Of a stretch of DNA of 64,000 nucleotides, positions 3,401 to 60,263 are shown one piece after another. How positions within the stretch are numbered: position 1 is the first letter of the stretch; every line of letters begins with the position of its first letter. The translations under genes and the position numbers were made by a program. This DNA comes from Polyangiales bacterium (lineage in GTDB: Bacteria > Myxococcota_A > Polyangia > Polyangiales > Ga0077539), in the NCBI GenBank assembly GCA_046351535.1, contig JAXLYG010000005.1:20163-84162 (forward strand), in the 5' to 3' direction. The notes under the pieces are model-generated. The model made no database searches. It saw nothing but the letters and a program-made list of their open reading frames with translations, and was not told the origin of the DNA.

Positions 3401-3415
3401 CGGGGCGTCGGGGTC

Positions 3416-4141
3416 TCAGGGCGAGAGTCGAAAGACGCGCGCGGCCTCGTCGGGCGCGTATCTGCGCGCGGCGTCGACCTCGGTGAAGCGCGTCGAGGTC
3501 TCGTCTCCGCTCGTCTCTCGCAGGGTCATCGCGTCGAGGATCACGCCCGCGCCTCGGAGCTCGATGTCGCGGAACACGCGCTGAATGGTGGCCACGCGAG
3601 GACGGAGCGTGAGCGTCCACGCCTCGGGACGCTGCGCGTCGGGGACGCGAAAATCGATCTCGTAGCTCCGCTCCAGGGCCGCACGATCGCCCGCGACGAG
3701 CGCGAGAAAGCTGTCGACGAACTGCCGCACCACGGGCGTCGCGTTCATGTCGATCGACTGCTCTCCGCGGCCATCCCCGAAGCGGAGGTGAGAGCCCTCG
3801 ATGAGCACCGTCGAGGGCGCGGGCGTCGCGGTGCGACGCACGAGGCGAGAGGGCGGCGCGTAGTCGAGGGTCCCTTCGCTCACGAGCGGCGCGGCGAGGA
3901 GCTGCACGCGCTTCTCTTCGCGAAACCGCGCGTGGAGACCGGGCACCGCGGCGAAGCGGCGGAGCAGCGCGTCGAGCGTCACGGGCGCGGCCACGGGCGC
4001 CGCGGGCGCGACGGGCGCGGTCACGGGCGTGCGGGTCGGACGGTTGCGCGGAGGGCGACGCGGCTGCGACGACGCGAGCGCCGAGAGGGCCACGAGCGAC
4101 AGCGCGAGCGCGCTACGCGACGATGCGGGAACGGATGGCAT
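3416..4141 (-). CDS. LolA-like lipoprotein-carrier family protein (ApeL-like)
   Basis: 241 aa with a signal peptide (SALALSLVALSALASS). Its size and its position between the thioesterase and MMPL genes match APE clusters. No diagnostic motif was read, so the call rests mainly on context. Confidence 0.6.
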   Translation of the reverse strand: MPSVPASSRSALALSLVALSALASSQPRRPPRNRPTRTPVTAPVAPAAPVAAPVTLDALLRRFAAVPGLHARFREEKRVQLLAAPLVSEGTLDYAPPSRLVRRTATPAPSTVLIEGSHLRFGDGRGEQSIDMNATPVVRQFVDSFLALVAGDRAALERSYEIDFRVPDAQRPEAWTLTLRPRVATIQRVFRDIELRGAGVILDAMTLRETSGDETSTRFTEVDAARRYAPDEAARVFRLSP

Positions 4142-4508
4142 CGGGGGTCTCCATGAGCAGCTCGCCGGCGGGCGTGGTGGTGACGAGGACGGTGCGCGCC
4201 CGCGCGACGCGGCGGTCGTGCGTGACGCTGTGGAGGTCGTAGAAGACCACGATGCGCTGCTCGACGTCGCCGAAGCGCGCCGTCACGCGCACGCGCTCGC
4301 CGTAGCGCAACGGGCGCATGTAGCGGCAGTGCGCGTCGACGACCATCATGTGAAGGCCGAGCTCCATGAGGTCGGGCACGTCGAGGCGGTGGACGCGCAT
4401 GAGCTCGGTGCGCGCGAGCTCGAGGTACTTGAAGTAGTTGCCGTGCCACACGACGCGCAGCCCGTCGACGTCGTGAAAGGGCACGGTGAGCTCGATGGAG
4501 GCGCTCAC
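4113..4508 (-). CDS. Hotdog-fold acyl-CoA/ACP thioesterase (4HBT/YbgC-like, ApeK-like)
   Basis: GTG start at 4508 overlaps the upstream stop (GTGA). 131 aa. The sequence ..IELTVPFHDVDGLRVVWHGNYFKYLE.. is typical of 4HBT thioesterases. Confidence 0.8.
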   Translation of the reverse strand: MSASIELTVPFHDVDGLRVVWHGNYFKYLELARTELMRVHRLDVPDLMELGLHMMVVDAHCRYMRPLRYGERVRVTARFGDVEQRIVVFYDLHSVTHDRRVARARTVLVTTTPAGELLMETPDAIRSRIVA

Positions 4509-5413
4509 GGCGAGGGCCTCCAGAAGTCGTAGAAGTTGAACCAGTTGTCGGGCGCGAGGCGGCAGTAGTGCTCGAGGCGCTCGGCGTAGCGGCGCGCCCA
4601 CGCGGCGAGGGAAGCGTCGCGGTCGCGTCGATCGACCACGAGCGGATCGGCGAAGGGCTCGCAGTAGAGGTCGTAGCGATCGGGCTCGGTGAACACGCCG
4701 AAGGTGAGGAACACCGGGCACCGCAGCGACGACGCGAGCAGGTACGGCCCCACGGGGAAGAGCGCCTTTCCGCCGAGAAAATCGATCTCCGCGGTGCGCG
4801 CGTTGAGGCCCGTGCGGTCGGCGAGGAGCGCGACGAACTCGCCCCTCTCGACGCGCTCCTTGAGCGCGAGGATGTAGTCGAAGCCCTCGGGCTCGATCTC
4901 GACGACGCGCGTCGACGCCTCGGGGTTCACGGCCGCGAGCGCCGCGTTGATCATCTTCGCGTTGCGAAAGTACCCGACGATGTTGACCGCGAAGTCGCGG
5001 CTGCGCCCCTGGGCGCGCATCGCTTCGAAGCTCCCGAGGTGCGCGCCGATGAGCACGGCCCCTCGGCCCGCCTCACGCGCCGCGCGGAGGTGCTCGGTGC
5101 CGTGGCTCTCGATGGTGAAGAGGTCGCGCCGCCCCTTGAGCAGAAAGAACCGATCGAGCGCGCAGTGCGCGAAGGTCAGCACGTGGCGGTACACGTCACC
5201 GAGCGAGGCGCCGCCGCGGACGCGCGTGAGGTAGTCGCGCGAGCACCGCCGCACGCGCCCGTGGAGCCCCACGTAGTACACGCACAGCGCCGCGAGGAAG
5301 AGCCGCGCGGGGCCGCGCCCGAAGGCCGTGCAGAGCCACACGACGAAGCGGATGCCGAGCACCGCGCCCTTCTCGCGCGTCTCGAGCCAGCCCTTCGGCG
5401 CGTCGTCGCTCAC
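4505..5413 (-). CDS. LpxL/HtrB-like lysophospholipid (lauroyl) acyltransferase
   Basis: GTG start at 5413 overlaps the GT2 stop (GTGA). 302 aa with an N-terminal membrane anchor (GIRFVVWLCTAF..LFLAALCVYYV), consistent with a LABLAT-type acyltransferase. Confidence 0.7.
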   Translation of the reverse strand: MSDDAPKGWLETREKGAVLGIRFVVWLCTAFGRGPARLFLAALCVYYVGLHGRVRRCSRDYLTRVRGGASLGDVYRHVLTFAHCALDRFFLLKGRRDLFTIESHGTEHLRAAREAGRGAVLIGAHLGSFEAMRAQGRSRDFAVNIVGYFRNAKMINAALAAVNPEASTRVVEIEPEGFDYILALKERVERGEFVALLADRTGLNARTAEIDFLGGKALFPVGPYLLASSLRCPVFLTFGVFTEPDRYDLYCEPFADPLVVDRRDRDASLAAWARRYAERLEHYCRLAPDNWFNFYDFWRPSP

Positions 5414-6147
5414 GGCGCCGCCTCCCGTCGCGGCGCGAAGAAGCGCGCGATGCGGGTGAGCATGAGCCGCGTGTGCATCCAGCTGATGAGGGCGTTGTCG
5501 CGCACCATGCGAAAGTGCGACACGCCGCCGTCTTCGCGCGAGATGTAGCGCACGCGCGTCGGGAGGTTGATCACCGGGACGCCCGCCCACACCATGCGCA
5601 CGGCGATCTCGGGGTCGAAGTCCATCGCGTCGCCGCGGGTGTTCGACGCGAGGGCCGCGCGCAGCGGGTACACGCGAAAGCCGCACATGGGGTCGGCGAT
5701 CACGGGTCCGCCCGCCTCGACGTTGGTCCAGAAGCGGGTGATCTCGCGCGCGGCGCGCCGTGATTTGGGCGCGCTCTCGTCGAAGACGGGCTGCCCGAGC
5801 ACCAGCGCCTCGGGCCTCTCGCGCGCGGCTTCGAGGAAGCGCGGGATGTCTTCGAAGGTGTGCTGTCCGTCGGCGTCGACCTGGAGCGCGTGCGTGTACC
5901 CGAGCGCGAGCGCGGCGCGGAAGCCGTCCTTCACGGCGGCTCCCTTTCCCCCGTTCTGCGCGCGTCGGTGGAGGTGCGCGAGGCCCTCCGAGGCGATGGC
6001 GTCGAGCACGGCGCGGGCCTCGGGTCCGCTGCCGTCATCGACGACGACGACGTCGCCGAGGTGCTCCCGCGCGCGCTCGACGACGGCGCGCACGGTGGCG
6101 GGGTTGTTGTACGTGGGGATGAGCACGCAGGGCTTGAACTCGCTCAC
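5410..6147 (-). CDS. Family 2 glycosyltransferase (ApeJ-like)
   Basis: 245 aa. Motifs VLIPTYNNPATV, VVVVDDGSGP and LQVDADGQH (DxD). GTG start overlaps the DH stop. Confidence 0.85.
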   Translation of the reverse strand: MSEFKPCVLIPTYNNPATVRAVVERAREHLGDVVVVDDGSGPEARAVLDAIASEGLAHLHRRAQNGGKGAAVKDGFRAALALGYTHALQVDADGQHTFEDIPRFLEAARERPEALVLGQPVFDESAPKSRRAAREITRFWTNVEAGGPVIADPMCGFRVYPLRAALASNTRGDAMDFDPEIAVRMVWAGVPVINLPTRVRYISREDGGVSHFRMVRDNALISWMHTRLMLTRIARFFAPRREAAP

Positions 6148-6515
6148 GGCGAAGCCTCTCCGAAATGGAGGGTCCCCGCCGAGGCGACGCCTCCTCCGAG
6201 CTCGATGACGAAGGCGACGGCGGCGCGCGCGCGGGTGTGTTCGAGGCGCAGCGAGAGGTCGTCGCCGGGCCTGATGGGCTTGTGAAACTTGAGCTTCGTC
6301 GCGCGTCGGAGCGGGGGCATCGCGGGCCAGGCCCGATGAACGAGCGGCAGCACGAGGTTGTTCAACTGCGCGACGGCGGGTAGCACCGGGTCTCCCTCGA
6401 AGTGCCCGAGGAAGTAGCAGAGCCCCGCGGGGACGTGCACCGCAAAGTCCGCGCGCGCCACGCCGTCGGCCTCGCTCTGCGCCTCGCTGCGCACCTCGAA
6501 CGCGCGCTCATCCAT
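6144..6515 (-). CDS. FabA/FabZ-like hotdog dehydratase (ApeI-like)
   Basis: ATG at 6515, 123 aa. The catalytic-type motif YFLGHFEGDPVLPAV (HFxxxPxxP) is present. Confidence 0.8.
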   Translation of the reverse strand: MDERAFEVRSEAQSEADGVARADFAVHVPAGLCYFLGHFEGDPVLPAVAQLNNLVLPLVHRAWPAMPPLRRATKLKFHKPIRPGDDLSLRLEHTRARAAVAFVIELGGGVASAGTLHFGEASP

Positions 6516-7143
6516 CGCGCACCGCCGTCTCGGTGATGGGCGGAAAGAGCCTCGCCATGAGCCTGTCGTGGGGCGCGTTCCCGTAGCGCCTGAAGCGCAT
6601 CGAGCGGAGCACGTACTCCACCGTGAACATCGCGCCGAGGAGCCCATACGAGAGCGCGCCCGTGTAGAGCGCCCACCACGCGACGGGCGCCGCGAGCGCG
6701 AGCACCGCGGAGACAACAGCGTTCACGGCGAAGAACACACACCACGCGACGGTGACCTTGCGACACCACGCTCTCTCGGGCTCCGAGAGGGTCGCGACCT
6801 GCATCCTCGCGAAGCGCTCGATGATCGGGGTGTCTCCGCGGAGCGTCGCGGCGAAGTGAACGAGCATCGCGGCGTTCACGAGCGAGGGCATCGCGAGCAT
6901 GAAGCGCGCGTCGCGGAGCACCGCGGCGCACAGGGCCAGCGCGCCGATCGTGAGAGGGACCCGCAGCGCGTGGGCGAGGTCGTCGCGGCGGGCGTTCTTC
7001 GCGGCGACGAGGGCGCGCGGGACGGCGACGACGAGCACGGCGAGGCCCACGGCGCGCGGACCCCAGCGGGTCACGCCGAGGTACACCGCGAAGGGGTACG
7101 CGAGCGTGGCGAGCACGCGGAGTGCGATCGCGAGCGCGCGCAT
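6508..7143 (-). CDS. Polytopic membrane protein (COG4648/ApeG-like)
   Basis: ATG at 7143, 211 aa, with several hydrophobic helices (MRALAIALRVLATLAYPFAVYLGV.., ..WCVFFAVNAVVSAVLALAAPVAWWALY..). The upstream part of the track ORF 6508..7899 is rejected as an Arg-rich artefact. Confidence 0.7.
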   Translation of the reverse strand: MRALAIALRVLATLAYPFAVYLGVTRWGPRAVGLAVLVVAVPRALVAAKNARRDDLAHALRVPLTIGALALCAAVLRDARFMLAMPSLVNAAMLVHFAATLRGDTPIIERFARMQVATLSEPERAWCRKVTVAWCVFFAVNAVVSAVLALAAPVAWWALYTGALSYGLLGAMFTVEYVLRSMRFRRYGNAPHDRLMARLFPPITETAVRDG

Positions 7144-7163
7144 CTGCGTAGGGCGGAGTCCCT

Positions 7164-8357
7164 TCAGCTCGCGAGAGACGCCGCGCGATGGGCTTCCCAG
7201 GAGCGCACCATCGAGGCGAGCTCGCCCATGCGGTCGGCCATGTCGTGCGGCGAGCGCCGCGTGGTGTTGTACACGTCGCCCGCGAGGAGCGTCACGATCC
7301 CCATGCGCAGGTAGGGCTTCTGGAGCTCGCGCGGCGCGAGCGCGACGGTCATGAAGTCGTCGGCGTACCAGTGGTCGATGACCTTGCGGAACACGCTCGC
7401 GCCGTCGCAGTACTCGCGCTGCCACGCGTCGAGGTCGCCGCCGTCGAGGGCCGCCGCGAGCTGGCGCGCGCCGTAGAGCCCGAGCAGCACGCCGGAGCTG
7501 AACACCGGGTCGATGAAGGTCGCCGCGTCGCCGCAGAGCGCGAAGCCCTCGCCGTGAAACGTCGTCGAGGTCGCGGTGTAGTCCTGCACGCCGCGGAAGG
7601 GGAAGAGCCGCTCGGCCTCGTCGAGCCGCGCCGTCGCGTCGGGCGACATGGCGATGGCGGCCTTGAAGCGCTCCTCCGCGGTGCCCTTGAGCGGACACGA
7701 CGGAGACATCACCACGCCCACCGAGGCCACGCCTCCGCCGAAGGGAATGATCCAGATCCAGCCGCCGGGGATGCAGCAGATCGTGATGTCGCCGGGCTGG
7801 TCGGGCGCGAGCTGCTTGACGCCCTTGCAGCGCGTTCCGATGGCGGCGTTCTTGAGCCGCGCGTCGCCCACGCGCAGGCCGAGCTTGCGAGAGAGCCACA
7901 TCGTGCGACCGCCCGCGTCGATGATCCGCTCGCCCGTGAGCGAGCCCGCGGAGGTGTCGAGCCGCCGCGCGGCCACGTCGGCGTCGCGCGCCTCGCCGTA
8001 CACGATGCGGCAGCCGGCGGCGCGCGCGGCGTCACGCCAGCGGAGGTCGAAGACCTCGCGCTGCACCTGCCACGCCCACTTGTAGCGAACGGCCTCGGCC
8101 TCGGAGAAGTCGAAGCGCACCGACGCGCCGTCGCGGCAGAACACGGCGCCGTGCTTGACGATGAAGCCGCTCATGTCGAGGCCGCACTCTTCGAAGATGA
8201 GCGTCGAGCCGGGGAGCATCGACTCGCCGACGACGCTCTCGGGACGCTCGACGGACTCGACGAGCGTCACCTTCGCGCCGCGCTTCGAGAGGTAGGTGCC
8301 GAGGGCGCACCCCGTGGGGCCTGCGCCGACGATGACGAAATCGCTCGTGAGGGTCAT
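7164..8357 (-). CDS. Flavin-dependent halogenase (tryptophan-halogenase family)
   Basis: 397 aa. It has an FAD-binding motif VIVGAGPTGCALG, GESMLPGS, and the halogenase signature WxWxIP as GGWIWIIPFG. Confidence 0.8.
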   Translation of the reverse strand: MTLTSDFVIVGAGPTGCALGTYLSKRGAKVTLVESVERPESVVGESMLPGSTLIFEECGLDMSGFIVKHGAVFCRDGASVRFDFSEAEAVRYKWAWQVQREVFDLRWRDAARAAGCRIVYGEARDADVAARRLDTSAGSLTGERIIDAGGRTMWLSRKLGLRVGDARLKNAAIGTRCKGVKQLAPDQPGDITICCIPGGWIWIIPFGGGVASVGVVMSPSCPLKGTAEERFKAAIAMSPDATARLDEAERLFPFRGVQDYTATSTTFHGEGFALCGDAATFIDPVFSSGVLLGLYGARQLAAALDGGDLDAWQREYCDGASVFRKVIDHWYADDFMTVALAPRELQKPYLRMGIVTLLAGDVYNTTRRSPHDMADRMGELASMVRSWEAHRAASLAS

Positions 8358-8605
8358 GTCGCTCCTTGGAGGTTCTTCGCGACGAGGTCGACGAGGTCGG
8401 CCACCGTGCGGATCTTTCGGAGCTCGCGCTCCTCGACGCGGCGGCCGGTCATCTCCTTGACCTTGACGGCCATGTCGATGGCGTCGATGGAGTCGAGCTC
8501 GAGGTCTTCGTAGAGCCTCGCGTCGAGGCGCACGGCGTCGGGGTCGACCTCGAAGCGGTCGACGAGCGTGCGGGCCATCTCGGCGAAGATCTGCTCGCGG
8601 TTCAT
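8354..8605 (-). CDS. Acyl carrier protein
   Basis: 83 aa with the phosphopantetheine site LELDSIDAIDM. ATGA overlaps occur on both sides. Confidence 0.9.
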   Translation of the reverse strand: MNREQIFAEMARTLVDRFEVDPDAVRLDARLYEDLELDSIDAIDMAVKVKEMTGRRVEERELRKIRTVADLVDLVAKNLQGAT

Positions 8606-8868
8606 TTGCCAGCCGGACGGTGCGCCGCGACGTGGGCCGCGAGGGCGCGCACCGAGGCGAAGATCGCGCGGTTGTTCTCGTCGTCGGCGCGGAGCTTCAC
8701 GCCGTAGCGCCGCTCGACGGCCATCGCGAGCTCGAGGGCGTCGATGGAGTCGAGGCCGAGGCCGGTGCCGAAGAGGGCTGCGGCGCTGTCGATCTCCTCG
8801 GGACGCACGCTGTCGAGCATGAGTGACTCGACGATCAGCCGCTTCATTTCGAGTTCGAGGTCTTCCAT
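8602..8868 (-). CDS. Acyl carrier protein
   Basis: 88 aa with the phosphopantetheine site LGLDSIDALEL. Confidence 0.9.
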   Translation of the reverse strand: MEDLELEMKRLIVESLMLDSVRPEEIDSAAALFGTGLGLDSIDALELAMAVERRYGVKLRADDENNRAIFASVRALAAHVAAHRPAGK

Positions 8869-8874
8869 GGCGGA

Positions 8875-9708
8875 TCAGGCTTCTACTCCCTCTTTGGGCG
8901 CATCGGAAGGCGCTGCGGGGACGTCCTCCGGGTGCGCCGCCCGCCAGGCGTCGAGGCGCGCGCGGTACATCTCCTGCGCGGCCTTCGCGAGGCGCCGCGC
9001 GTCGCCGTCGAAGTCCTCGGGGCGCAGCGTGGCGATGGGCTCGACCGCGAGCCGCACGAGGCGCTTGGGCAGCGCGTACCAGGGGACGCCCTTCATCAAC
9101 GTGGGCGGCGTACACGTCACGAGCACGAGCGCCACGGGCACGCCGGCCCTGCACGCGACCTCGAAGGCTCCGCGCCTGAAGCGCCTCACCCCGCCGGGCG
9201 GAGAGCGCGTCCCCTCGGGGAAGATCAGCACGCGGAAGCCCGCCTCGATGCGCTCGATCGCGCCCTGAATCACCGCCGCGCCCGACATCGCGGCGCCCTC
9301 TCCCGCGTCGATGTGCCAGCACGCGCGGAGGATCCGTCCGACGAAGGGGTTCTCGAAGAGGTCGCTGCGCACGACGGTGCACGCGCCGCCGAGGGCTGCG
9401 CCGAGGGCCGTCACGTCGACCAGCGTGGGGTGATTCGCCACGACCACGCAGGGTCCCTCGGGGAGGCTCAGCGACACCTCGCGCGGGTCGTACCGCATGA
9501 GCCGCAGGTGGTGCATGAGCGCGTGAAACTGCTTGAATCCACGGCTGATGAGGCTCTGCGCGCGGCGCACGCGCTCGCGCTCGTCGGTGACGCCGCGGCG
9601 CGCGAGCGGCAGGAGCGCGTACGACAGCACCAGCGATCCGACGCCGAAGTACACGAACATCGCGCCGATCAAGACGAGGCGTACGATCCATTCGAGGGGG
9701 CGCAGCAT
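8875..9708 (-). CDS. 1-acyl-sn-glycerol-3-phosphate acyltransferase family (LPLAT, ApeD-like)
   Basis: 277 aa with an N-terminal TM segment, the HX4D motif NHPTLVD, and FPEGTRS. Confidence 0.85.
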   Translation of the reverse strand: MLRPLEWIVRLVLIGAMFVYFGVGSLVLSYALLPLARRGVTDERERVRRAQSLISRGFKQFHALMHHLRLMRYDPREVSLSLPEGPCVVVANHPTLVDVTALGAALGGACTVVRSDLFENPFVGRILRACWHIDAGEGAAMSGAAVIQGAIERIEAGFRVLIFPEGTRSPPGGVRRFRRGAFEVACRAGVPVALVLVTCTPPTLMKGVPWYALPKRLVRLAVEPIATLRPEDFDGDARRLAKAAQEMYRARLDAWRAAHPEDVPAAPSDAPKEGVEA

Positions 9709-9759
9709 CGGCGTGTCGTCCAGCGCGGCGCGAGTGATATCACACGCGCTCCGCGGCCG

Positions 9760-10587
9760 TCAGCGACACAGGCGCAGCGCGCCCAGGCGCCCCGAGGCGC
9801 AGCGGACCTCGTGTTCGAAGCGCGCTTCTCGGGAAGGGTCATCGAGCCACGCGGCGAGCTCCACCGCGCCCGACGCGCCGAGCCAGTCGGGGTGCGCGTC
9901 GTCGCCGCCGTCGTGCGCACGGAGCGAAGCGTGTTCGAGCGTCGCGAGGGGCGCACGGCCGCGCGCGCGTACGGCCTCGACAGGTTCGAGCACGAGCGCG
10001 ACGACGGCCTCCGCGGCAGCGGGTTGCGCGCGTTCGGAGCGCAGCCGCGCGCGGTCGGGGCCGAGGGTGTCTCCCGCGATGACGAGGGCTCCCTCTGCGC
10101 GGCCGAGGGCGATGGCGCGACGGGCCTCGACGAGCGCGGCGACGGCCGACGCGCGCCCTGCCATCACGGTCGTCGCGTGGCCTCTCACGCCGAGCGCGAT
10201 GGCGATCTCGCCCGCGGGCGCCGACGGAATCGTCTGCGCGAAGAGGATCGGGGATGCCCCCTCGGCGCCGCGCTCCACGAGCCCGCGGTGGTATCGCTCG
10301 TTGACCTCGGCACAACCGAGCGCGGTGCCCACCACGACGGCGAGCGACCGCACGCGATCGGCTTCAATCTCCGCGCGAGAGAGCGCCCGCTGCGCCACGA
10401 GGAGCGCGTGGGCGCTCGCGCGATCCATGCGACCCGTGCGCTCGGGCGCGGCGGGCCAGAGCGCGCGAATGGAGGCCGTGATGCGCGAGGTCTTCACGCC
10501 GTCGACCTCGGCCCAGCGCGGCGCGCGCGGAGCCCCTTCGCCTGCGGCCGAGAGCGCGGCCCACGCGGTGATCGCGAGGTCGCTCAC
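9760..10587 (-). CDS. Beta-ketoacyl synthase-like protein lacking the active-site Cys (chain-length-factor-like)
   Basis: GTG at 10587 overlaps the KS stop (GTGA). 275 aa. The stretch TTVMAGRASAVAALVEA aligns with the KS stretch VSTACTSSAAALMQA, placing Arg where the catalytic Cys would be. Confidence 0.75.
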   Translation of the reverse strand: MSDLAITAWAALSAAGEGAPRAPRWAEVDGVKTSRITASIRALWPAAPERTGRMDRASAHALLVAQRALSRAEIEADRVRSLAVVVGTALGCAEVNERYHRGLVERGAEGASPILFAQTIPSAPAGEIAIALGVRGHATTVMAGRASAVAALVEARRAIALGRAEGALVIAGDTLGPDRARLRSERAQPAAAEAVVALVLEPVEAVRARGRAPLATLEHASLRAHDGGDDAHPDWLGASGAVELAAWLDDPSREARFEHEVRCASGRLGALRLCR

Positions 10588-11774
10588 GGGGCACCGATCA
10601 CGAGCGCGGTGTTGTGTCCCGCCATCGCGGCGTTGAGCGAGAGCGCGACGCCCTCTCGCATCGCCGTGGGCGCGGGGTCGACGGTGAGCCACGCGAGCGA
10701 AGGGTCACGCTCCCGCGGCGTGTGCGTCGGCGGACGTACGCGGTGACGCAGCGCCTCGACGCAGAGCGCGACCTCGACGAGCCCCGAGGCGCCGAGGGTG
10801 TGTCCCGTCACGGGCTTCAAGCCGTGTACGGGCGGCGCCGTGTCGCCGAAGACCGCTCGCAGCGCGGCGGCCTCCATCGCGTCGTTGAAGCGCGTCGAGG
10901 TCGCGTGCGCGCTCACCCACGCGACGTCGGCGTTCGATGCGTTCGCCTCGCGCAGCGCGTGTGTGACGGCCCGCGCGAGCCCGGCCCCCGTGCGATCGGG
11001 CGCGGTCATGTGAACGCCGTCGCCCGAGGTTCCGCCGCCGAGGTAGCGCGCCACCGCGGGGCCGTCGCGCGTGAGGAGCACCGCGGCCGCGGCCTCGCCG
11101 AGCCACATGCCCGCGCGATCCACGGCGAAGGGAGCGGGCGGCGCCGTGTCGGGCGTGAGCGCGCAGAGCCGATCGAAGCCCGCGTGGACGAAGCGGCAGA
11201 GCACATCGACGCCGATCACCAGCGCGGCGTCGATCTCGCCGAGCCGCAGCGCGTCGGCGGCCTGCATGAGCGCGGCTGCCGAAGAGGTACACGCGGTGCT
11301 CACGGTGACCACCTCGCCGCGAAGTCCGAGGGCGCGCGCCACGGCGGGCGCGGTGTCGTCGTGGCCCACGCGCGAGGGCGCGACGGGAAGCGCCTCTCCG
11401 CGCGTGAGGGCGCGGTGCCAGGGCTCCCACGCGACGACAGCGCCGAGGCTCGTCCCGACGAAGAGGGCGGTGTCGGGCGAGAGCGCTTGACCGCGGAGCG
11501 CGTCGTCGACGGCGGCGAGCGCGAGCTGCGTGGCGCGGTCGAGGCCGGGCCAGCGCGCGTCGATGGCGGCCCAGATCGACGGCGCGATGAGGGCCGCGTT
11601 GCGCACCGCGAAATCGTGGGTGTCGTAGCGGTCGACGGGGGCGGCGAGGGGCGCGGCGGCGAGGGTGGCGCGCCAGAGGGCGTCGAGGCCCACGCCCGCG
11701 GCGGAGACCGCGCCGACGCGACGGATCGAGAGCGGCGCGCGCGCGTGTGTGGCGTCGGGCTTCTCGTGGGTCAT
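10584..11774 (-). CDS. Beta-ketoacyl-ACP synthase (type II KS)
   Basis: 396 aa. The Cys-His-His triad context is present: VSTACTSS, SAHATSTRFND, VTGHTLGASG. Confidence 0.9.
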   Translation of the reverse strand: MTHEKPDATHARAPLSIRRVGAVSAAGVGLDALWRATLAAAPLAAPVDRYDTHDFAVRNAALIAPSIWAAIDARWPGLDRATQLALAAVDDALRGQALSPDTALFVGTSLGAVVAWEPWHRALTRGEALPVAPSRVGHDDTAPAVARALGLRGEVVTVSTACTSSAAALMQAADALRLGEIDAALVIGVDVLCRFVHAGFDRLCALTPDTAPPAPFAVDRAGMWLGEAAAAVLLTRDGPAVARYLGGGTSGDGVHMTAPDRTGAGLARAVTHALREANASNADVAWVSAHATSTRFNDAMEAAALRAVFGDTAPPVHGLKPVTGHTLGASGLVEVALCVEALRHRVRPPTHTPRERDPSLAWLTVDPAPTAMREGVALSLNAAMAGHNTALVIGAP

Positions 11775-33178: not shown

Positions 33179-35220
33179 GCCTCCGCGGGGCGGCCCTCGC
33201 CCTCGCCCTCGCGGTCGCGCCCTCGCTCGTCGGCGCCGATCCCCTCGCGCTCTCGGACAACACCGCGGGCGCAGCCCTCGCGCCGCACTGCGAGCTCCTC
33301 CGCGACCCGCGCGGAACGCTCGACGCGCGCGCCGTGCTCGCGCACCGGGGCGCCGTTCCGGTGCGCGGCGACGGCGTCGAGATCGGCTTCACGGGTGACA
33401 CGGTCTGGCTCCGCTGCCGCGTGCGAAACCGCGGGCGCGCGCGGGGCGAGTGGCTCGTCGACGTGGGGGGCCAGCTCGACCGCGTCGACGTGATCACCGA
33501 GCGCGACGGTGCGCTGCGCGTCGAGCGCGGAGGCCGGCTGCGCCCCCGCGTCGACGTCGAGGTGTCGTACACGTCGTTCGTGTCGCGCGCGCTCGTCGAC
33601 GGCGGCGCCGAGGCGCCGGTCTTGATCCGCGTGCGCAGCGACGCGCCGGTGGTGCTCCGGCCGCGCGTGTGGAGCGCCCACGCCTTCGTCGACCACGCGC
33701 TGCGCGAGGTCTTCGTGATGGGGCTCTTCTACGGGCTCCTGCTCGTGGTGCTGGCCTACAACGTGAGCCTCTACGCCTCGACGCGGCAGCGCATCTACCG
33801 CCTCTACACGGCCTTCGTGGGGACCCTGCTGCTCTTCGCGCTCGTGGTCGACCAGCTCGTGGTGACCTTCGTCACGCCGCGCGACGCCGCGTGGCAGGCG
33901 ACGTCGGGCGTGCGCTTCGGGACCCTCGCGGCGCTCGCGTCCATCGCGTTCACGCGCGCGTACCTCGACACGCCGCGGCTGCTCCCTCGCGCCGACCGCG
34001 CGGCGGGCGCCGTCGACGCGGCGCTCGTGGCGCTCTTCGCGTCGACGTTCGCGTCGAACTCGGTGCTCTTCAAGAAGGCCGCGATGGCCGTGTCGGCGCC
34101 GGCCCTCGTCGCGCTCTTCGTCGCGGCGATCCTCTGCTGGCGAAAGGGGAGCCGCGAGGCGCCGTGGTTCCTCCTCGGGTGGACGGTGTCGACGGGGGGC
34201 TTCCTCGTGCGGGGCGCGGTGCAGGTGGGCGCCGTGCCGATGAGCACGGTCACCGAGAACGCGTGGCGCGCGGGGCTGATCTTCAACGTGGCGCTCCTCT
34301 CGCTCGGCCTCGCGGCCCGCGTGCGCGCCCTCCACGACGAGAAGGAGCGCGCGCAGTCGGACCTCCTCGCGGACCGCGAGGCCATGACCGCGCGCCTCGA
34401 GTCGCTCGTGGCCGTGCGCACCCGCGAGCTCGAGGCCGCGATGCGAGACCTCACCGAGGCGCAGCGCGCGATGTCGCACCAGAAGCGCGCGGCCTCGCTC
34501 GGGCAGCTCGCCGCCGCGCTCGCGCACGAGGTCGCCAACCCGCTGAACTTCACCGCGGGCGGCGCCGCCGAGCTGGCGCGGCGCGTCGAGGCGCTCAAGG
34601 TCGCCCTCGAAGGGCTCGACGCGAGGCACCCCGACGACCCCGACCTCGGCAGGGCCCGCATCGCCCTCGCGGGCGCGCGCAAATCGCTGGAGCTCGTGCA
34701 GGGCGGCAACGCGCGCATCCGGTCGGTGGTCGACAGCCTCCGCGCGTACATGCGCTCGGGGGCCGCGGAGCCCGAGGCCGTCGACGTGATGGAGGCCGTG
34801 CGCTCGACGCTGCGGCTCATGGAGTCGAAGCTCGCCGCGCAGCGCGTCGAGGTGACGGTGACGGGCGACGACCTCCCGCGCGTGCGGGGGCGCACGGGCG
34901 AGCTCTGTCAGGTGTTCATGAACCTCATGCTCAACGCCGCGCAGGCGATGCCCGACGGGGGCGCGATCACGGTCACGGGCGTCGCGTCGGGCGCGCGCGT
35001 CGAGGTGGTGATCGCAGACACGGGGCCGGGGATTCCCCCCGAGCGGAGGAGCGCGGTGTTCGATCCGTTCTTCACGACGCGGGGCGACGAGGGAGGGACG
35101 GGGCTCGGGCTCTCGATCAGCCACGAGATCGTGCGGCGCCTCGGGGGTGAGCTCAGCCTCGCGGAGAGCGAGGTGGGCGCGACCTTCGTGGTGAGGCTCC
35201 AGCCGTGGGAGGAGGCGTGA
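33175..35220 (+). CDS. Sensor histidine kinase with periplasmic domain plus 7 TM helices (7TMR-DISM-like)
   Basis: GTG at 33175 overlaps the regulator stop (GTGA). A signal peptide is followed by a ~170-aa extracytoplasmic domain and seven hydrophobic helices. The H-box is LAHEVANPLN, the N box is NLMLNAAQAM, and the G boxes are DTGPGIP and GTGLGLS. Confidence 0.85.
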   Translation: MSLRGAALALALAVAPSLVGADPLALSDNTAGAALAPHCELLRDPRGTLDARAVLAHRGAVPVRGDGVEIGFTGDTVWLRCRVRNRGRARGEWLVDVGGQLDRVDVITERDGALRVERGGRLRPRVDVEVSYTSFVSRALVDGGAEAPVLIRVRSDAPVVLRPRVWSAHAFVDHALREVFVMGLFYGLLLVVLAYNVSLYASTRQRIYRLYTAFVGTLLLFALVVDQLVVTFVTPRDAAWQATSGVRFGTLAALASIAFTRAYLDTPRLLPRADRAAGAVDAALVALFASTFASNSVLFKKAAMAVSAPALVALFVAAILCWRKGSREAPWFLLGWTVSTGGFLVRGAVQVGAVPMSTVTENAWRAGLIFNVALLSLGLAARVRALHDEKERAQSDLLADREAMTARLESLVAVRTRELEAAMRDLTEAQRAMSHQKRAASLGQLAAALAHEVANPLNFTAGGAAELARRVEALKVALEGLDARHPDDPDLGRARIALAGARKSLELVQGGNARIRSVVDSLRAYMRSGAAEPEAVDVMEAVRSTLRLMESKLAAQRVEVTVTGDDLPRVRGRTGELCQVFMNLMLNAAQAMPDGGAITVTGVASGARVEVVIADTGPGIPPERRSAVFDPFFTTRGDEGGTGLGLSISHEIVRRLGGELSLAESEVGATFVVRLQPWEEA

Positions 35221-54334: not shown

Positions 54335-57118
54335 ATGCGACTTATCAGTGCCTCCGCGGTCCTCACGCTCGCGCTCTCGCCCTTCGGTTGCACAGACACA
54401 TCGACGGGTACGCCCGCGGACTCGGGCCTCGACGCGCCGCGCGACACCCTCGACGAACGCCCCACGCTGCCTCCGTACGTCGACCCCTACGCGTGCCCGA
54501 GCACCCGCGACGAGCTGCCCGCCCTCGATGATCCGCTCGACGCGGCGGAGGCGCGCGCGGGGACCATCCGCAACGAGGCCGAGCTCATCGGCGGAGAGGG
54601 CGCAGCGGGCCGCGTCGGTCACCTCAAGATCTACAACAGCCGCGTGCGCTTCGTGGTGCAGGGCCGCGTCGGCACGACGGGGTCATCGCGCGCCATCGGA
54701 TACAGCCTCTACGGCGGCAACGTGATCGACGCCGACCGCGCGAGGCCCCGCGGCGCGCAGGGTCAAGACGTGTTCCGCGAGACCTTTCCTGCGTTCGCGT
54801 TCCGCGTGTCGACGGTCGACGAGGTGGCCGTCGCGTGCGACGGATCGAACGGACGCCCCGCGGCGATCCGCGTGGTGGGCGTCGACGCGCCGAGCCGCAT
54901 CCTCGGGATCCTCGACAACCTCTCGCGCGAGCAGGGTGTGCGGATGGTCACCCACTACGTGCTCCGCCCCGACAGCGACGTGCTCGAGATCATCACCGAG
55001 GCGCAGTCGCTCGACGGCTGGTCGATCAGCAACTCGGCCGCGGGAGACTTCCTCGGCTTCGGCTCGGCGCTCTCGCTCTTCAACGGCGAGACGGGCTTCG
55101 GCAACATCGCGCGCGCCTCGATGCCGCTCACCTGGCTCGCCGCCGTGAGCGACCCCGGCGAGGGAGACCGCCACGTCTCCTACGCCATCGCGCCCTCCGA
55201 GGGACCCATGAGCGTCCCCGTCGTCGACGCGTCGGGCACCGTGGGCCTCTACAACGCCGTCAACGCCGCGAAGGGAGCGCCCGCGCGCTTCACCCGCTAC
55301 CTCTCCGTCGGCGGCGGCGACGTGGCCTCCGCCGTCGAGCCCATCCTCCGCGCGCGCCACGAGCCCTTCGGCGTCGTCACCGGACGCACCACTTCGAACG
55401 CCCTCGTCTACGCCTACCGCGACGCGTACACCGTCGGCGCCAACGCGCGCTCCATCGCCCGCGCGCAGATGGACGGCTCGTATCGCATGGCGCTCCCGCC
55501 GGGCACCTACGCGATCACCGCCGTCGACGAGGGCGTCACGCGCGCCGCGCCCGTGATGGTCACCGTGACCGCCGACGGGATGGCCACGGCGAATCCCACC
55601 ACCGGGTCGTCGGGCACGATCGCGCTCGACCTCGGCGTGCTCGACGCGATGGGAGCCCGCGTGCGCGCGCCCGTGAAGGTCAGCCTCCGCGGCGTCGACG
55701 TCGAGGCCCCCGACGACGCGATGGGCGAGCTCGAAGGCGAGCGCGAGTCCTTCGGTCTGCACCGCGCGATCTTCAGCCTCACGGGGCAGGAGCGCTACGC
55801 CGTGAAGCCCGGCCGCTACCGCGCGACCGTCTCACGCGGCGACGAGTACGACGTGGCCACCGCCGAGGTGACCGTGGCCGCGGGCGGAGAGGCCACGCTG
55901 CGCGCCGACGTGCGACGCGTGGTCGACACCGCGGGGATGATCTCCGTCGACCTGCACCAGCACACGGTGGGCAGCATCGACTCGCCGCGCGCCCTCTGCG
56001 GACGCGTGCTCGAGAACGTCGCCGAGGGGCTCGAGTTCGCGGCCACGACCGACCACGACAACGTCACCGACTTCGCGCCGTGCATCCGGTCGCAGAACCT
56101 CGGCGCGTGGTTCAACGCGATGCGCGGCAACGAGATCTCCGTCGTGGGCCTCGGCCACTTCAACGCGTACCCGCTCGTGGTCGACCCCGCCGATCCCTTC
56201 GCGCTCATCGGCGCGCAGTACTGGGCGGGCCTCGACGCGCAGCAGCTCTTCGACAAGGTGCGCCGCGAGGCGGGCGGTCCGCTCCTCCACGTGTCGCACC
56301 CGCGCTCCAACGGCTTCAAGGGGTACTTCACGTCGATCAACCTCGACCCCGTGAACCTCACGGGCCGCGTCGCCCTCGCGCGCAACTGGGAGGCGATGGA
56401 GGTCAACGAGTCCTTCGGCACGCCCGAGCAGTACACCGCGGCGTCTGACGCGACGCTCTCGGCGCTCGCGCGGAGAGACGCCTCGGCGATCCCGACGCTG
56501 CGCGACTTCTTCTCGTTCATCTCGCGCGGCGATCACGTCTGCGCGCTCGGCAACAGCGACACGCACGGCCGCAACAACGGCTCGGGGTGGCCGCACAACC
56601 TGGTGATGGTCGGCGAAGACCGCCCCGATCAGGTGACGCCCGCGGCGATCACCACGGCGATCCGCGCGCAGCGGGTGCTCGTCTCGAACGGCATCGTGGT
56701 GCGCATCCGGTCGGGCGGCGCGGTGCACATGGGCGCGGGCGACGTCGTGCGCGCCACGGGCGGAACCGTCGACCTCGAGCTCGACGTGCAGGCCGCGCCG
56801 TGGGTCGACGTGCGCTCGCTGGTGCTCTTCGAAAACGGCCGTCCGCTCGCGCTCACGAGCGACGGACGCGGCGGCCTCGACGCTTCGAACACGGTCGGCG
56901 CCGCGGGCTGGGGCATCGCGCTCGACGCGACGTCACCGGGTCGCTCGGGCGTCACGCGGCTGCGCGCCACGGTGCATCTGCGACCGACGCGCGACAGCCA
57001 CTACCTCGCGCTCGCGCGCGGCGGATCGCTCGCGCCCGTCGGGGCAGGGGACGCCTTCGGTTACACCAACCCCGTCTACGTCGACGTCGACGGGAACGGC
57101 TGGCAGCCCGCGATGTGA
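54335..57118 (+). CDS. Lipoprotein with carboxypeptidase-regulatory-like domains and a PHP (CehA/McbA-type) metallohydrolase domain
   Basis: Signal/lipobox MRLISASAVLTLALSPFGC. 927 aa. PHP motifs SVDLHQHTVGSIDS, ATTDHDNV, GNEIS, GNSDTHG. Confidence 0.75.
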   Translation: MRLISASAVLTLALSPFGCTDTSTGTPADSGLDAPRDTLDERPTLPPYVDPYACPSTRDELPALDDPLDAAEARAGTIRNEAELIGGEGAAGRVGHLKIYNSRVRFVVQGRVGTTGSSRAIGYSLYGGNVIDADRARPRGAQGQDVFRETFPAFAFRVSTVDEVAVACDGSNGRPAAIRVVGVDAPSRILGILDNLSREQGVRMVTHYVLRPDSDVLEIITEAQSLDGWSISNSAAGDFLGFGSALSLFNGETGFGNIARASMPLTWLAAVSDPGEGDRHVSYAIAPSEGPMSVPVVDASGTVGLYNAVNAAKGAPARFTRYLSVGGGDVASAVEPILRARHEPFGVVTGRTTSNALVYAYRDAYTVGANARSIARAQMDGSYRMALPPGTYAITAVDEGVTRAAPVMVTVTADGMATANPTTGSSGTIALDLGVLDAMGARVRAPVKVSLRGVDVEAPDDAMGELEGERESFGLHRAIFSLTGQERYAVKPGRYRATVSRGDEYDVATAEVTVAAGGEATLRADVRRVVDTAGMISVDLHQHTVGSIDSPRALCGRVLENVAEGLEFAATTDHDNVTDFAPCIRSQNLGAWFNAMRGNEISVVGLGHFNAYPLVVDPADPFALIGAQYWAGLDAQQLFDKVRREAGGPLLHVSHPRSNGFKGYFTSINLDPVNLTGRVALARNWEAMEVNESFGTPEQYTAASDATLSALARRDASAIPTLRDFFSFISRGDHVCALGNSDTHGRNNGSGWPHNLVMVGEDRPDQVTPAAITTAIRAQRVLVSNGIVVRIRSGGAVHMGAGDVVRATGGTVDLELDVQAAPWVDVRSLVLFENGRPLALTSDGRGGLDASNTVGAAGWGIALDATSPGRSGVTRLRATVHLRPTRDSHYLALARGGSLAPVGAGDAFGYTNPVYVDVDGNGWQPAM

Positions 57119-57125
57119 GCGCGTC

Positions 57126-57440
57126 TCACGCGGGATACGCTTGCACGATCTCGAGGCGCGGTCGCTCGATGTGCTGCACGCGCGAGGTCACGAGGTCGCG
57201 CTCGCCGTGGCGAAAGTAGATCGCGTCGCCCACGCGCGGCTCGTCGAGCACCGGGAGCACGCCCGAGTCTTGATAGCGCAGCGCGCCTTCGAGCGTGCGC
57301 CCGAGCGCGGGATGCACCTCGCACCACGCGTCGTTGCGGCGGTCTCGCACGCCCACGCAGACGCCCGCGCGGACGTGGTACTCGGTGTTGCGGGTCACAT
57401 ACACGCGATGGATGCGGCGCTCGGTCCCCTTGTATCCCAT
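57126..57440 (-). CDS. Small hypothetical protein (104 aa)
   Basis: ATG at 57440 is preceded by AGGAGAG. The protein begins MGYKGTERRIHRVYVTRNTEYHV... It has an RRxxxR-like motif, but I could not find the second PilZ motif, so no family call is made. Confidence 0.6.
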   Translation of the reverse strand: MGYKGTERRIHRVYVTRNTEYHVRAGVCVGVRDRRNDAWCEVHPALGRTLEGALRYQDSGVLPVLDEPRVGDAIYFRHGERDLVTSRVQHIERPRLEIVQAYPA

Positions 57441-57517
57441 TGGACGCTCTCCTGTACGGGAGACACTGTCGGGCGAGGGGTTCGGGGGCGTCCACTTTCG
57501 GGCGGCGATTAGGCTAC

Positions 57518-57747
57518 CTCTACTGTCCCGGACGAGCGCTGCGTTTCTCATCGCCGCGCGAAACACGCGGCAGGGAAGGCAGTTCGAGATCGATTCGAAT
57601 GAAGTCCCCGCCCGCGGACTCGCGCACGAGGCTCCGATTGGGAGTCCTGCGAAGCGGGACTTTTCGCAGGATGCTCACAAAATGCTTTCCCTGCCGCGTG
57701 TTTCAACACGCGGCGTGAAGGCCCAGGCTTCATCCGGGACAGTAGAG
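57518..57747. repeat. 230-bp near-perfect palindromic element (MITE-like, or a rod-shaped structured RNA)
   Basis: Perfect 15-bp terminal inverted repeats: CTCTACTGTCCCGGA at 57518-57532 and TCCGGGACAGTAGAG at 57733-57747. A second helix pairs 57560-57581 with 57683-57704 (22 bp, one G-T). A 10-bp helix pairs 57548-57558 with 57709-57718. A bulged apical helix pairs 57601-57621 with 57642-57665. CTAC occurs immediately outside both ends (57514-57517 and 57748-57751). Confidence 0.5.
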
Positions 57748-58554
57748 CTACGGAGCGGGCGGCGGCTCCGCGGGCGGCGGCTCCGCGGCGTTCTCTTCGA
57801 CCTCGGTGGTGAGCGCGGCCTCGAGCCACCGGGCGAGGCGCGCGCTCTGCTGCGCGTGCAGCGTGGCGCGGGCGCGGATGCTCTGCACGTAGCGCCGCGC
57901 GGCGGCGAACTCGGCGGCGTACGCGGGCGCCTCGGCGCGGGCCTCGCCGTCGTCGCTCAACACCGGCGGGAGCTCCCTCACGAGGAGCGACGCGCAGCGC
58001 TGCGTGGCCTCGGCGTCGCGGAGCACGCGGTCGATCACGGCGAGGAGCGGCGCGAGCCCCGGGGCCTCGGCGTTGGGGGTGAGCGTGAGCGACACGTCGC
58101 GCTCGACGTCGTGAAAGCGGTCGTCGATGGCGGACAGCGCGGCGCGCTCGCTGGCCGCGGGCGCGAGCACGGCGGCGAGCCACGCGCGCTCCTTCTCCTC
58201 GTCGGGGGGAGCGCCCTCGGGGCCGCGGTCGAAGTGGACCCGCACGCGCGTCACGCCGGCGCCGCGGAGCGCGTCCCGCAGCGCGTTCTCGAGGTCGGGC
58301 GCCTCCGCGTTGGGGAGGCGACCGAGCGCGCGAGAGAGGTCGGCCATGAGGTCCGCGCGGCGGAGGTCGACGTCGGCGAAGGCGTGCTGACACCCGCGAA
58401 CGGCTGAGAAATACGAGTCCGCGTGGGGTCGCTGCGTCACCACGAGCTGCTCGCGGTTCACGCGCGTGACGCGCGAGCCCGCGAAGGGATCAGAGCTGCA
58501 ACTGCACAGCGCAGCGGCGCACGCAAGCGCTGAGAATGCGTCGCGGAGGTTCAT
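57748..58554 (-). CDS. Lipoprotein, function unknown
   Basis: ATG at 58554. Signal/lipobox MNLRDAFSALACAAALCSCSS. 268 aa. The TAG stop lies inside the right-hand CTAC flanking the palindromic element. Confidence 0.7.
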   Translation of the reverse strand: MNLRDAFSALACAAALCSCSSDPFAGSRVTRVNREQLVVTQRPHADSYFSAVRGCQHAFADVDLRRADLMADLSRALGRLPNAEAPDLENALRDALRGAGVTRVRVHFDRGPEGAPPDEEKERAWLAAVLAPAASERAALSAIDDRFHDVERDVSLTLTPNAEAPGLAPLLAVIDRVLRDAEATQRCASLLVRELPPVLSDDGEARAEAPAYAAEFAAARRYVQSIRARATLHAQQSARLARWLEAALTTEVEENAAEPPPAEPPPAP

Positions 58555-58742
58555 CGTGCGTGACGGGGAGTACACGCGCGACGACATCCGCGGACAACAA
58601 AATACAAGTTGGCGACAACTTCGACAGAGCCCGAAGGCTATTGAATCCAGCGGAAATCGCGAGGTGTCGGAAAGGTGCATCACACGCCCGAGCGGCGGTA
58701 GAGACGCGCCACGAACCGATCCCAGAGGACGCTGAGGAACTG

Positions 58743-60263
58743 ATGACCACGCTGCTGATCGCCGTCCCGTACCTGACCGTGCTCCTGCTGCTGGTGCTCT
58801 ATGGTCTGCACCGCAGCCAGCTCGTGTGGCTGTTGTGGAAGCACCGCACCGAGCTCCCGCCGGCTCCGCCCTGTCAGCTCCCCGAGGCCGAGCTCCCGCA
58901 CGTGACCGTTCAGCTCCCGCTCTTCAACGAGCCCGACGTGCTCGAGCGCCTGCTCGAGTGTGTCGCTCGCATCGACTACCCCCGCGACAAGTTCGAGATC
59001 CAGGTCCTCGACGACAGCACCGACGACACGCGCGAGCGCTCCAAGGCCAAGGTCGCCGACCTCGTGCGCCGCGGCATCGACGCGGTGTACATCCACCGCA
59101 CCGACCGCACGGGCTACAAGGCCGGCGCGCTCGACAACGGGCTCAAGTACGCCAAGGGCTCGCTCGTCGCGGTCTTCGACGCCGACTTCCTCCCGCAGCC
59201 GTCGTTCCTCCGCACGGTGGTGCACCACTTCGCGGACCCGAAGGTGGGCTGCGTGCAGGCGCGCTGGGGCCACCTCAACCGCGAGACCTCGATCCTCACG
59301 CGCGTGCAGGCGCTCATGCTCGACGGTCACCACATGGTCGAGAACCGCGCGCGCTTCGCGGCGGGTCGCTTCTTCAACTTCTCGGGCACCGGCGGCATCT
59401 GGCGCCGCGAGGCCATCGGCGACGCGGGCGGCTGGCAGCACGACACGCTCACCGAAGACCTCGACCTCTCGTACCGCGCGCAGACCGCGGGCTGGCGCTT
59501 CGTCTACCGCGAGGATCACGTCACCCCCGCCGAGCTCCCCGAGGAGATGGAGGCGTTCCGCGCGCAGCAGTTCCGCTGGGCCAAGGGCACCGTGCAGACC
59601 GCGCGCAAGCTCCTCTCGAAGGTGTGGAGCGCGAAGCACCTCAACCGCAACATCCGCCTCGAGGCGGTGTTCCACATGACGCCGCACTTCGCGTACCCGC
59701 TGATGATGCTGCTCGCGGTGTTCCTCCTCCCGATGCTGCTCATCATGCCCGTGAGCGATCCGGTCTCGCTGCTCCTCGTCGACATCCCCCTCATGGTCGG
59801 CTCGACGGGCTCGCTCGCGACCTTCTACATGGTCGCCGAGCGCGCGCAGGGCCGCACCGCCCTCGGCGCCCTCCGCCGCCTCCCCTGGCTCCTCGCCATC
59901 GGCGCGGGCATGTCTCCGTACCTCACGCGCGCCGTGTGGGAGGGCCTCCAGGCCGAGACCGGCGAGTTCGTCCGCACGCCCAAGAAGGGCCAGAGCGCGC
60001 GCTCGGGCCGCTACCGCGCCCGCACGATCCTCCCCGTCATCGAGATCGTGCTCCTCCTCGAGAGCATCGTGTCGGTGTACACCGCGCTCACGACGGGCCA
60101 CTACATCGCCGCGCCCTTCGCGCTCCTCTACGTGATGGGCTTCGGCTACGTCTCGTACTCGGTGATCACCGAGCGCATGGCCGCCGTCGCCGCCGCCGAA
60201 GCGCGCCGCCCGCAGCCCGTCGCCGCCACCGCCGAAGAGGCGACCGAGTCCGTCGCGGCCTGA
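58743..60263 (+). CDS. Processive family 2 glycosyltransferase (cellulose-synthase/CslA-like beta-glycan synthase)
   Basis: ATG at 58743, 506 aa, with an N-terminal TM segment and 4 or more C-terminal TM segments. Motifs VLDDSTDDT, VFDADF, TEDLDLS and QQFRWAKG (QxxRW). Confidence 0.85.
   Translation: MTTLLIAVPYLTVLLLLVLYGLHRSQLVWLLWKHRTELPPAPPCQLPEAELPHVTVQLPLFNEPDVLERLLECVARIDYPRDKFEIQVLDDSTDDTRERSKAKVADLVRRGIDAVYIHRTDRTGYKAGALDNGLKYAKGSLVAVFDADFLPQPSFLRTVVHHFADPKVGCVQARWGHLNRETSILTRVQALMLDGHHMVENRARFAAGRFFNFSGTGGIWRREAIGDAGGWQHDTLTEDLDLSYRAQTAGWRFVYREDHVTPAELPEEMEAFRAQQFRWAKGTVQTARKLLSKVWSAKHLNRNIRLEAVFHMTPHFAYPLMMLLAVFLLPMLLIMPVSDPVSLLLVDIPLMVGSTGSLATFYMVAERAQGRTALGALRRLPWLLAIGAGMSPYLTRAVWEGLQAETGEFVRTPKKGQSARSGRYRARTILPVIEIVLLLESIVSVYTALTTGHYIAAPFALLYVMGFGYVSYSVITERMAAVAAAEARRPQPVAATAEEATESVAA

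Follow-up and report, generated by a model that had tools for sequence, protein, structure and literature searches.

How did a 230-bp foldback sequence come to lie between two co-oriented genes of a Polyangiales bacterium, and what kind of genetic object is it? The sequence occupies positions 57518-57747 of a 64,000-nucleotide stretch of contig JAXLYG010000005.1 (GenBank assembly GCA_046351535.1, contig positions 20,163 to 84,162 of the forward strand), the whole of which we call the window, and it separates a lipoprotein-like gene from a gene for a protein of 104 amino acids (aa), both on the minus strand. A preliminary description, made from the sequence alone, had set two readings side by side as fitting equally well—a transposable element of the miniature inverted-repeat kind (MITE), or a long structured RNA of the 6S or leader type. 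Our analysis indicates that the element is very probably a non-autonomous DNA transposon (a foldback MITE), recently inserted by a DDE-type transposase supplied in trans. This reading rests on its small size and lack of coding capacity, on terminal repeats that abut a verified target-site duplication, on its presence or absence at the level of strains, and on its lower G+C content.

The decisive comparison is with loci that do not carry the element. Orthologous loci were reached, in metagenome contigs and metagenome-assembled genomes (MAGs), through homologues of both flanking proteins. The closest locus, L025, is a contig of 4,018 bp that comes from activated sludge (metagenome ENA ERZ937806) and aligns with the window in two megablast blocks: L025 1-1387 corresponds to window 59133-57747 at 99.6% nucleotide identity, and L025 1383-4018 to window 57517-54883 at 99.0%. 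What the contig is without is exactly the 230 bp, and the two blocks overlap at L025 1383-1387. Read on the minus strand, L025 has GTAGC a single time and the window has it in two copies, which abut the terminal repeats; the junction of the empty allele is GCTCCGTAGCCACAATCGCCGCCCGAAAGTGGACG, and the filled allele runs through GCTCCGTAG, then the element (CTCTACTG...CAGTAGAG) and then GTAGCCTAATCGCCGCCCGAAAGTGGACG. Since the empty site holds the tetranucleotide once, the CTAC found on both sides of the element is a true target-site duplication. The 4-bp duplication that had been put forward as a possibility is therefore real rather than a 1-in-256 coincidence, and its right copy does contain the TAG stop codon of the lipoprotein-like gene, as had been noted.

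The exact extent of the duplication can be drawn in more than one way. The direct repeat extends to 5 nt (GCTAC, 57513-57517 and 57747-57751) if its right copy is allowed to overlap the last base of the right terminal repeat. A 4-bp duplication, CTAC, would be the most parsimonious reading within a possible range of 2-5 bp, and it is preferred because it is the only one under which the element begins and ends exactly where the perfect repeats do.

The orthologous site is likewise empty in L026-L028 (~94% nucleotide identity), in L029 and L001 (BLAST segments of ~84-89% nucleotide identity) and in L002 and L003, where the flanking proteins share 75-84% identity with those of the window; across L029, L001, L002 and L003 the amino acid identity of the flanking proteins spans 75-92%. 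The window has a spacer of 307 nt between the lipoprotein-like gene and the 104-aa gene, where L025-L028 have 74 nt, L003-L006 have 63 nt, and L001, L002 and L029-L035 have 75-76 nt. Because every relative examined is empty, one gain of the element is a more parsimonious account than its exact loss many times over, and the simplest history would be a single insertion in the lineage of the window, within the time taken for at most 1% divergence. The proposal of a MITE-like insertion is thus strongly supported by the vacant site, found both in the strain of 99% identity and in all of the more distant relatives examined.

The filled allele itself was seen in the window alone: exact look-ups of the flanking proteins in other assemblies returned no second contig with identical proteins, and so no other filled allele. 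This fact, together with the known occurrence of palindromic artefacts in long-read data, is what an assembly or sequencing artefact—for instance a chimeric or foldback read carried into the contig—has in its favour. However, foldback artefacts invert adjacent sequence, whereas the element resembles neither its flanks nor any other part of the window, and neither a clean target duplication nor diverged arms with indels are products of such an artefact, which makes this explanation extremely improbable.

The architecture of the element is summarized in Table 1, together with the neighbouring features. The repeats, the flanking CTAC, the helices, the apical helix and the competing hairpin listed in the preliminary description were all recovered in place.

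Table 1. Features of the element, its insertion site and the adjacent genes (window coordinates)
Feature	Position	Strand or arm	Remarks and basis
Inserted element, 230-bp foldback, MITE-like	57518-57747	none	Absent from relatives; fold z-scores; no credible open reading frame
Target-site duplication CTAC, left copy	57514-57517		Readable as 5 nt, GCTAC, 57513-57517
Target-site duplication CTAC, right copy	57748-57751		Includes TAG stop of minus-strand gene
Left terminal inverted repeat, CTCTACTGTCCCGGA	57518-57532	+	15/15, perfect
Right terminal inverted repeat, exact reverse complement of CTCTACTGTCCCGGA	57733-57747	-	15/15, perfect
Internal repeat block, left copy, GAAACACGCGGCAGGGAAGGCA	57560-57581	+	28 nt inside the terminal repeat
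Internal repeat block, right copy	57683-57704	-	Pairs with 57560-57581
Local perfect palindrome, GCCGCGTGTT-tc-AACACGCGGC	57693-57714	right arm	Inverted-repeat search
Imperfect counterpart of the 57693-57714 palindrome	57553-57571	left arm	
10-bp helix with one bulge	57548-57558 / 57709-57718		In the sequence and in predicted folds
Apical bulged helix			In the sequence and in predicted folds
Competing 8-bp hairpin, CCTGCGAA/TTCGCAGG	57646-57653 / 57663-57670		In the sequence and in predicted folds
Lipoprotein-like gene	about 57748-58554	-	Upstream neighbour; TAG stop at 57750-57748
Insertion point, TAG stop codon of the lipoprotein-like gene	57748-57750	-	Comparison with the empty site
Original 73-nt spacer upstream of the 104-aa gene	57441-57513	-	Left intact by the insertion; alignments with relatives
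Conserved motif in the spacer, GAAAGTGGAC	57490-57499 (plus-strand positions)	read on -	14 nt from the junction
104-aa gene	57126-57440	-	Downstream neighbour; function not assigned

When the left arm was aligned globally with the reverse-complemented right arm, 91 of 124 columns were identical, with several indels, and the score was 59 compared with -75 +/- 12 for shuffled sequences; the arms are homologous along their full length, with an overall similarity of ~73%. The divergence between them is uneven, falling from 15/15 matches at the tips to ~12/28 (~43%) in the stretch that follows and rising again to 21/22 in the internal block, where the single exception is a G-T pair on the plus strand. 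This distribution fits constraint on two binding blocks, and the 22-bp internal block may, judged from its conservation, be a candidate second protein-binding site; it overlaps the local palindrome in both arms. The label of a near-perfect palindrome applied earlier therefore holds for the two blocks, while the arms as a whole, and above all the 28 nt between the blocks, are far less alike. No other long nested inverted repeat occurs in the 64-kb window. An element of the IS200/IS605 type was considered on account of the hairpins that each arm contains and was ruled out by the perfect terminal inverted repeats and the target duplication.

The element is also set apart by its composition, with a G+C content of 61.7% against 72.0% for the whole window; the AT-richer interior reported earlier is borne out by these values, and a G+C content 10 points below the surroundings is as expected for DNA with its own history. 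The predicted folds are very stable, well beyond what chance would give: -141.6 kcal/mol for the plus-strand RNA (z = -8.6), -147.7 kcal/mol for the minus-strand RNA (z = -10.1) and -77.3 kcal/mol for single-stranded DNA (z = -9.5), with none of 200 shuffled sequences folding as well in any of the three cases.

What speaks for a structured RNA gene or a cis-regulatory leader is the very stable rod-like fold, with an internal loop and on both strands, together with the intergenic position upstream of a conserved small gene; the product would be a discrete functional RNA of ~230 nt, either 6S-like, as a rod interrupted by a central bubble, or the leader of the 104-aa gene. The resemblance to 6S RNA (RF00013 and its relatives) extends to a rod of ~200 nt with an internal loop. 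However, the orthologous loci examined keep the flanking genes and the upstream motif but all lack the element, even that of a strain 99% identical; in contrast to 6S RNA, the element varies between strains and carries transposon-type ends and a target duplication. The terminal inverted repeats and the verified duplication belong to transposition rather than to an RNA gene. Moreover, no Rfam match was obtained at E<=1 in 56500-58800, nor any at the gathering score in the whole window, and no homologue was found, hence no covariation. There is no promoter-like or terminator-like site within or at the element. An intrinsic terminator was rejected as well, neither end of the element showing a G+C-rich hairpin followed by a U-tract, and the only terminator-like site in 57300-57900 (57768-57788, plus strand) falls inside a coding region. 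The two readings of the preliminary description consequently do not fit equally: the presence/absence polymorphism between strains, which it had itself set against an RNA, is what the loci display, and we consider a functional RNA at this site highly unlikely.

If the element is a transposon, what moved it? The element itself carries no transposase and has no coding capacity. A six-frame translation, used also to catch spurious open reading frames (ORFs) called in other copies of the element, found no match at E<=10 among 5.8 billion proteins, and its fully open frame matched only two unrelated repeat proteins among 1.84 billion representative proteins. The best lead to a mobilizing enzyme comes from the ends. 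In the survey of De Palmenaer et al. (2008, Table 1; PMC2266710), IS701 insertion sequences (ISs) have ends of the form '---YACT-Y--YR-------' (NNNYACTNYNNYR) and direct repeats of exactly 4 bp; members measure 1400-1550 bp and encode a DDE transposase without the YREK motif, and the consensus covers, according to the authors, one of three end signatures and not the whole family. Reading the register from the boundary that the 4-bp duplication fixes independently, the end of the element, CTCTACTGTCCCG (CTC-TACT-G-T-CC-CG), agrees with all seven specified IS701 positions, the comparison being with the published consensus and not with member sequences. The same pattern occurs at 39 of 128,000 window positions (3e-4), two of the 39 being the termini of the element. 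Beyond the 4-bp repeat and the shared end consensus, the two differ in that the IS701 members are far longer and encode their transposase, whereas the element has 230 bp and encodes nothing; furthermore, some members have other ends and longer repeats, as in ISDge5, with the end CTCAGGAGTTGCACCT and 5-nt repeats (PMC6843628). On the strength of this end match and of the 4-bp duplication, an IS701-family transposase would be the most likely mobilizer, although the match is a lead and not proof of membership. Two 50-kb stretches of Thermus pTT27 contained no IS701, and a literature search for the end sequence of the element returned unrelated primers only.

On this basis, a course of events can be proposed for the insertion. 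A DDE-type transposase, supplied in trans, would have recognized both 15-bp terminal inverted repeats, and may also have bound the 22-bp internal repeat of each arm as a second site; the stop codon of the lipoprotein-like gene would have been cut at CTAC with a stagger and the element joined in there, and repair of the stagger would have duplicated CTAC. The donor would have been another copy, located elsewhere in the genome or on incoming DNA. Since the arms are ~27% diverged and the insertion is very young, the element should predate its arrival at this site, implying that a donor copy exists or existed. Judged from these two divergences, the element is old and its insertion is younger than the ~1% that separates the strains.

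Several results weigh against the transposon reading in this form. The length of the duplication is not unique, as 2, 3, 4 or 5 nt all fit the empty site; the IS701 consensus represents only part of that family, with ISDge5 departing from it in both ends and repeats; and neither a second copy nor a parent element came to light. In the 64-kb window, a pattern search with mismatches, blastn at word size 7 and nhmmer yielded no second copy, and none was found in ~75 kb of related Polyangiales loci. The paired-end pattern CTACTGTCCCGG-N185-215-CCGGGACAGTAG had 0 hits in 185,579 species-representative genomes (GTDB; exact words), where the 18-nt end pattern CTCTACTGTCCCGGAYGA gave 7 chance hits, with no extended similarity or partner end, in unrelated taxa (Ramlibacter, Bacteroides, an archaeon and others). 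Among viral contigs, the 15-nt end produced 10 chance hits only, and the inner 18-mer and a paired pattern of shorter spacing produced 0; blastn against plasmids and phages returned insignificant short matches only. No parent IS with the same ends was present in the collections scanned, the source genome not being among them. The scans of large collections need exact words, and the source genome gave no self-hit there; it therefore lies outside the DNA collections scanned, and the negatives on copy number are weak. Repeats of ~230 bp often break short-read assemblies.

In the JGI metagenomes, the paired-end pattern had one match, L007 (Ga0209100_1012516), which was rejected as a relative: it is AT-rich, has only a 12-mer in common with the element, holds this 12-mer inside longer arms and shows no direct repeat there. 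L007 1380-1730 is a long palindromic element in its own right, with arms of at least 70 nt that contain CTACTGTCCCGG internally and also fit the IS701 end pattern; it had no match in plasmids. As to the window, the earlier statement that it holds no transposase stands for the compositionally atypical ORFs, among which a partial check detected no transposase domain; nine other window proteins were judged by record name only, seven being of housekeeping type and two 'hypothetical protein'.

The latitude in the duplication also leaves room for a MITE mobilized by a family other than IS701—for example, a TA-duplicating IS630/Tc1-like family, in which case the element would have 232 bp with its outermost pair mismatched, or a family that duplicates 5 bp. 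With GTAGC present once in the empty site, TA, TAG, GTAG or GTAGC could be the true duplication, and TA is the duplication made by many bacterial MITEs that are palindromic throughout (Correia, ERIC, RUP); the partial coverage of the IS701 family by its published consensus counts in the same direction. Against this stands the position of the 4-bp boundary, which alone puts both ends at the limit of the perfect repeats and at which the IS701 consensus is matched at every specified position over a background of 3e-4. The ends known for other families whose repeats measure 3-5 bp do not fit CTCTAC: by the ISfinder end rules, IS3, IS21 and IS481 start with TG, IS1380 with CC, IS5 with GG and Tn3 with GGGG. 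The remaining families in the same table as IS701 do not fit either, ISH3 ending in CRGT, IS1634 in C-----YT, and the IS4 subgroups having repeats of 7-13 bp (PMC2266710). Mobilization by another family is possible, but on this evidence unlikely.

A further alternative dispenses with a transposase altogether and regards the element as a one-off insertion: palindromic filler DNA left by double-strand-break repair or a template switch, and flanked by chance microhomology. The single known copy accords with such an event, as does the direct repeat, a microhomology of 4-5 nt being typical of end-joining, and a small sequence change that lies 2 nt away from the junction may be a scar of repair. However, the fragment copies no nearby sequence, whereas template switching would give an inverted local copy; the perfect 15-bp repeats lie exactly at the junctions of arms that are otherwise 27% diverged, a pattern that random filler would not be expected to show and that points to selected ends; and these ends fit a known transposon end consensus. 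We therefore hold a repair event to be improbable, and return to the mobilized MITE for the comparisons below.

Two features of the left flank were recorded alongside. At 57506-57513, 2 nt past the duplicated GTAG, the window has CCTAATCG (minus strand) where L025 and L027 have CCACAATCG, that is, a 1-nt deletion and a substitution beside the junction; this change could be a scar left by repair of the insertion, or else a mutation that arose separately. Additionally, the flank at 57496-57512 is complementary at 15 of 17 positions to 57547-57563 inside the left arm, probably by chance in a G+C-rich region. A local template-switch origin was considered for this match and rejected, similar imperfect matches being common in the region and the similarity not extending further.

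Set beside described bacterial MITEs, the element is of a familiar kind. Its 230 bp fall within the range of the MaeMITEs of Microcystis (176-429 bp; PMC2779907), and, like these and MITEAba12, it has terminal inverted repeats, a short target-site duplication and no transposase, is intergenic and polymorphic among strains, and has a G+C content below that of its host. The known families differ in having many copies and, where one is known, a parent IS, whereas a single copy is known here. A second group of relatives in form comprises ERIC/IRU of enterobacteria, Correia of Neisseria and RUP of Streptococcus pneumoniae, which occur in tens to hundreds of copies, duplicate TA and have documented effects on mRNA processing. 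With these the element shares no sequence, but it resembles them in being an imperfect palindrome over its whole length that would form an RNA hairpin if co-transcribed, and it sits between co-oriented genes just past a stop codon. Taken together, it is probably an ordinary kind of element, of a family undescribed so far and, as far as its ends indicate, related to IS701-type transposons.

Its position raises the question of consequences for the adjacent genes. The duplication of CTAC restores the TAG stop, so the coding sequence of the lipoprotein-like gene is unchanged. According to the fold model, minus-strand read-through from this gene would carry a hairpin of ~-148 kcal/mol between the stop codon and the conserved motif of the 104-aa gene; judged from other palindromic repeats that lie between genes, this hairpin could block, process or stabilize the read-through RNA. 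No function is needed to explain the presence of the element. A bolder proposal would see in it the founding member of an undescribed family of Polyangiales foldback MITEs, whose arms combine the 15-bp repeat with a 22-bp subterminal block that has an operator-like palindrome in it and which would act as a portable hairpin altering expression of the downstream 104-aa gene; we regard this combination as rather doubtful.

The locus bears on several broader matters. It points to DNA transposition that is, or was until recently, active in an uncultured Polyangiales lineage of activated sludge, and a literature search found, within the library covered, no paper describing MITEs in myxobacteria. It also offers a clean pair of filled and empty sites, with junctions resolved to within a 5-nt repeat, which could be used as a strain marker and as a starting point toward the cognate transposase. 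Moreover, it holds a caution for RNA-structure screens, as the extreme folding z-score belongs here to what is very likely a mobile palindrome and not to a functional RNA.

The genes around the element are well conserved. All orthologous loci keep the same order, in which a divergent family-2 glycosyltransferase is followed by the lipoprotein-like gene and this in turn by the 104-aa gene, and the latter retains its place next to the lipoprotein-like gene across homologous loci. Its product has 888 homologues (E<=0.001) in MAGs of Myxococcota/Polyangiales, matched no Pfam family and has no name. The 10-nt spacer motif GAAAGTGGAC lies ~55 nt upstream of the 104-aa gene's ATG and is kept in all orthologous loci down to ~75% protein identity, and a second conserved patch, GACAGTG, follows ~25 nt downstream of it. 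The motif may serve this widely conserved gene as promoter or operator.

Finally, some observations were made elsewhere in the window, in which a tRNA search returned none. The 3' end of the lipoprotein-like gene contains a 15-bp tandem repeat (57756-57794) that encodes AEPPP-AEPPP and is found in L025 as well. A 45-nt stretch at 34311-34353 is ~87% identical, as a secondary BLAST hit, to a segment within the lipoprotein-like genes of L026-L028 and L001, a similarity that probably reflects a low-complexity coding repeat. In the region 3400-10700, the G+C content at third codon positions of the ORFs is 0.72-0.85 compared with ~0.9 in the rest of the window; their products are LolA-like, lipid A acyltransferase-like, a family-2 glycosyltransferase, a halogenase-like flavoprotein and a carrier-protein domain, and the region may be a lipid or secondary-metabolite island.

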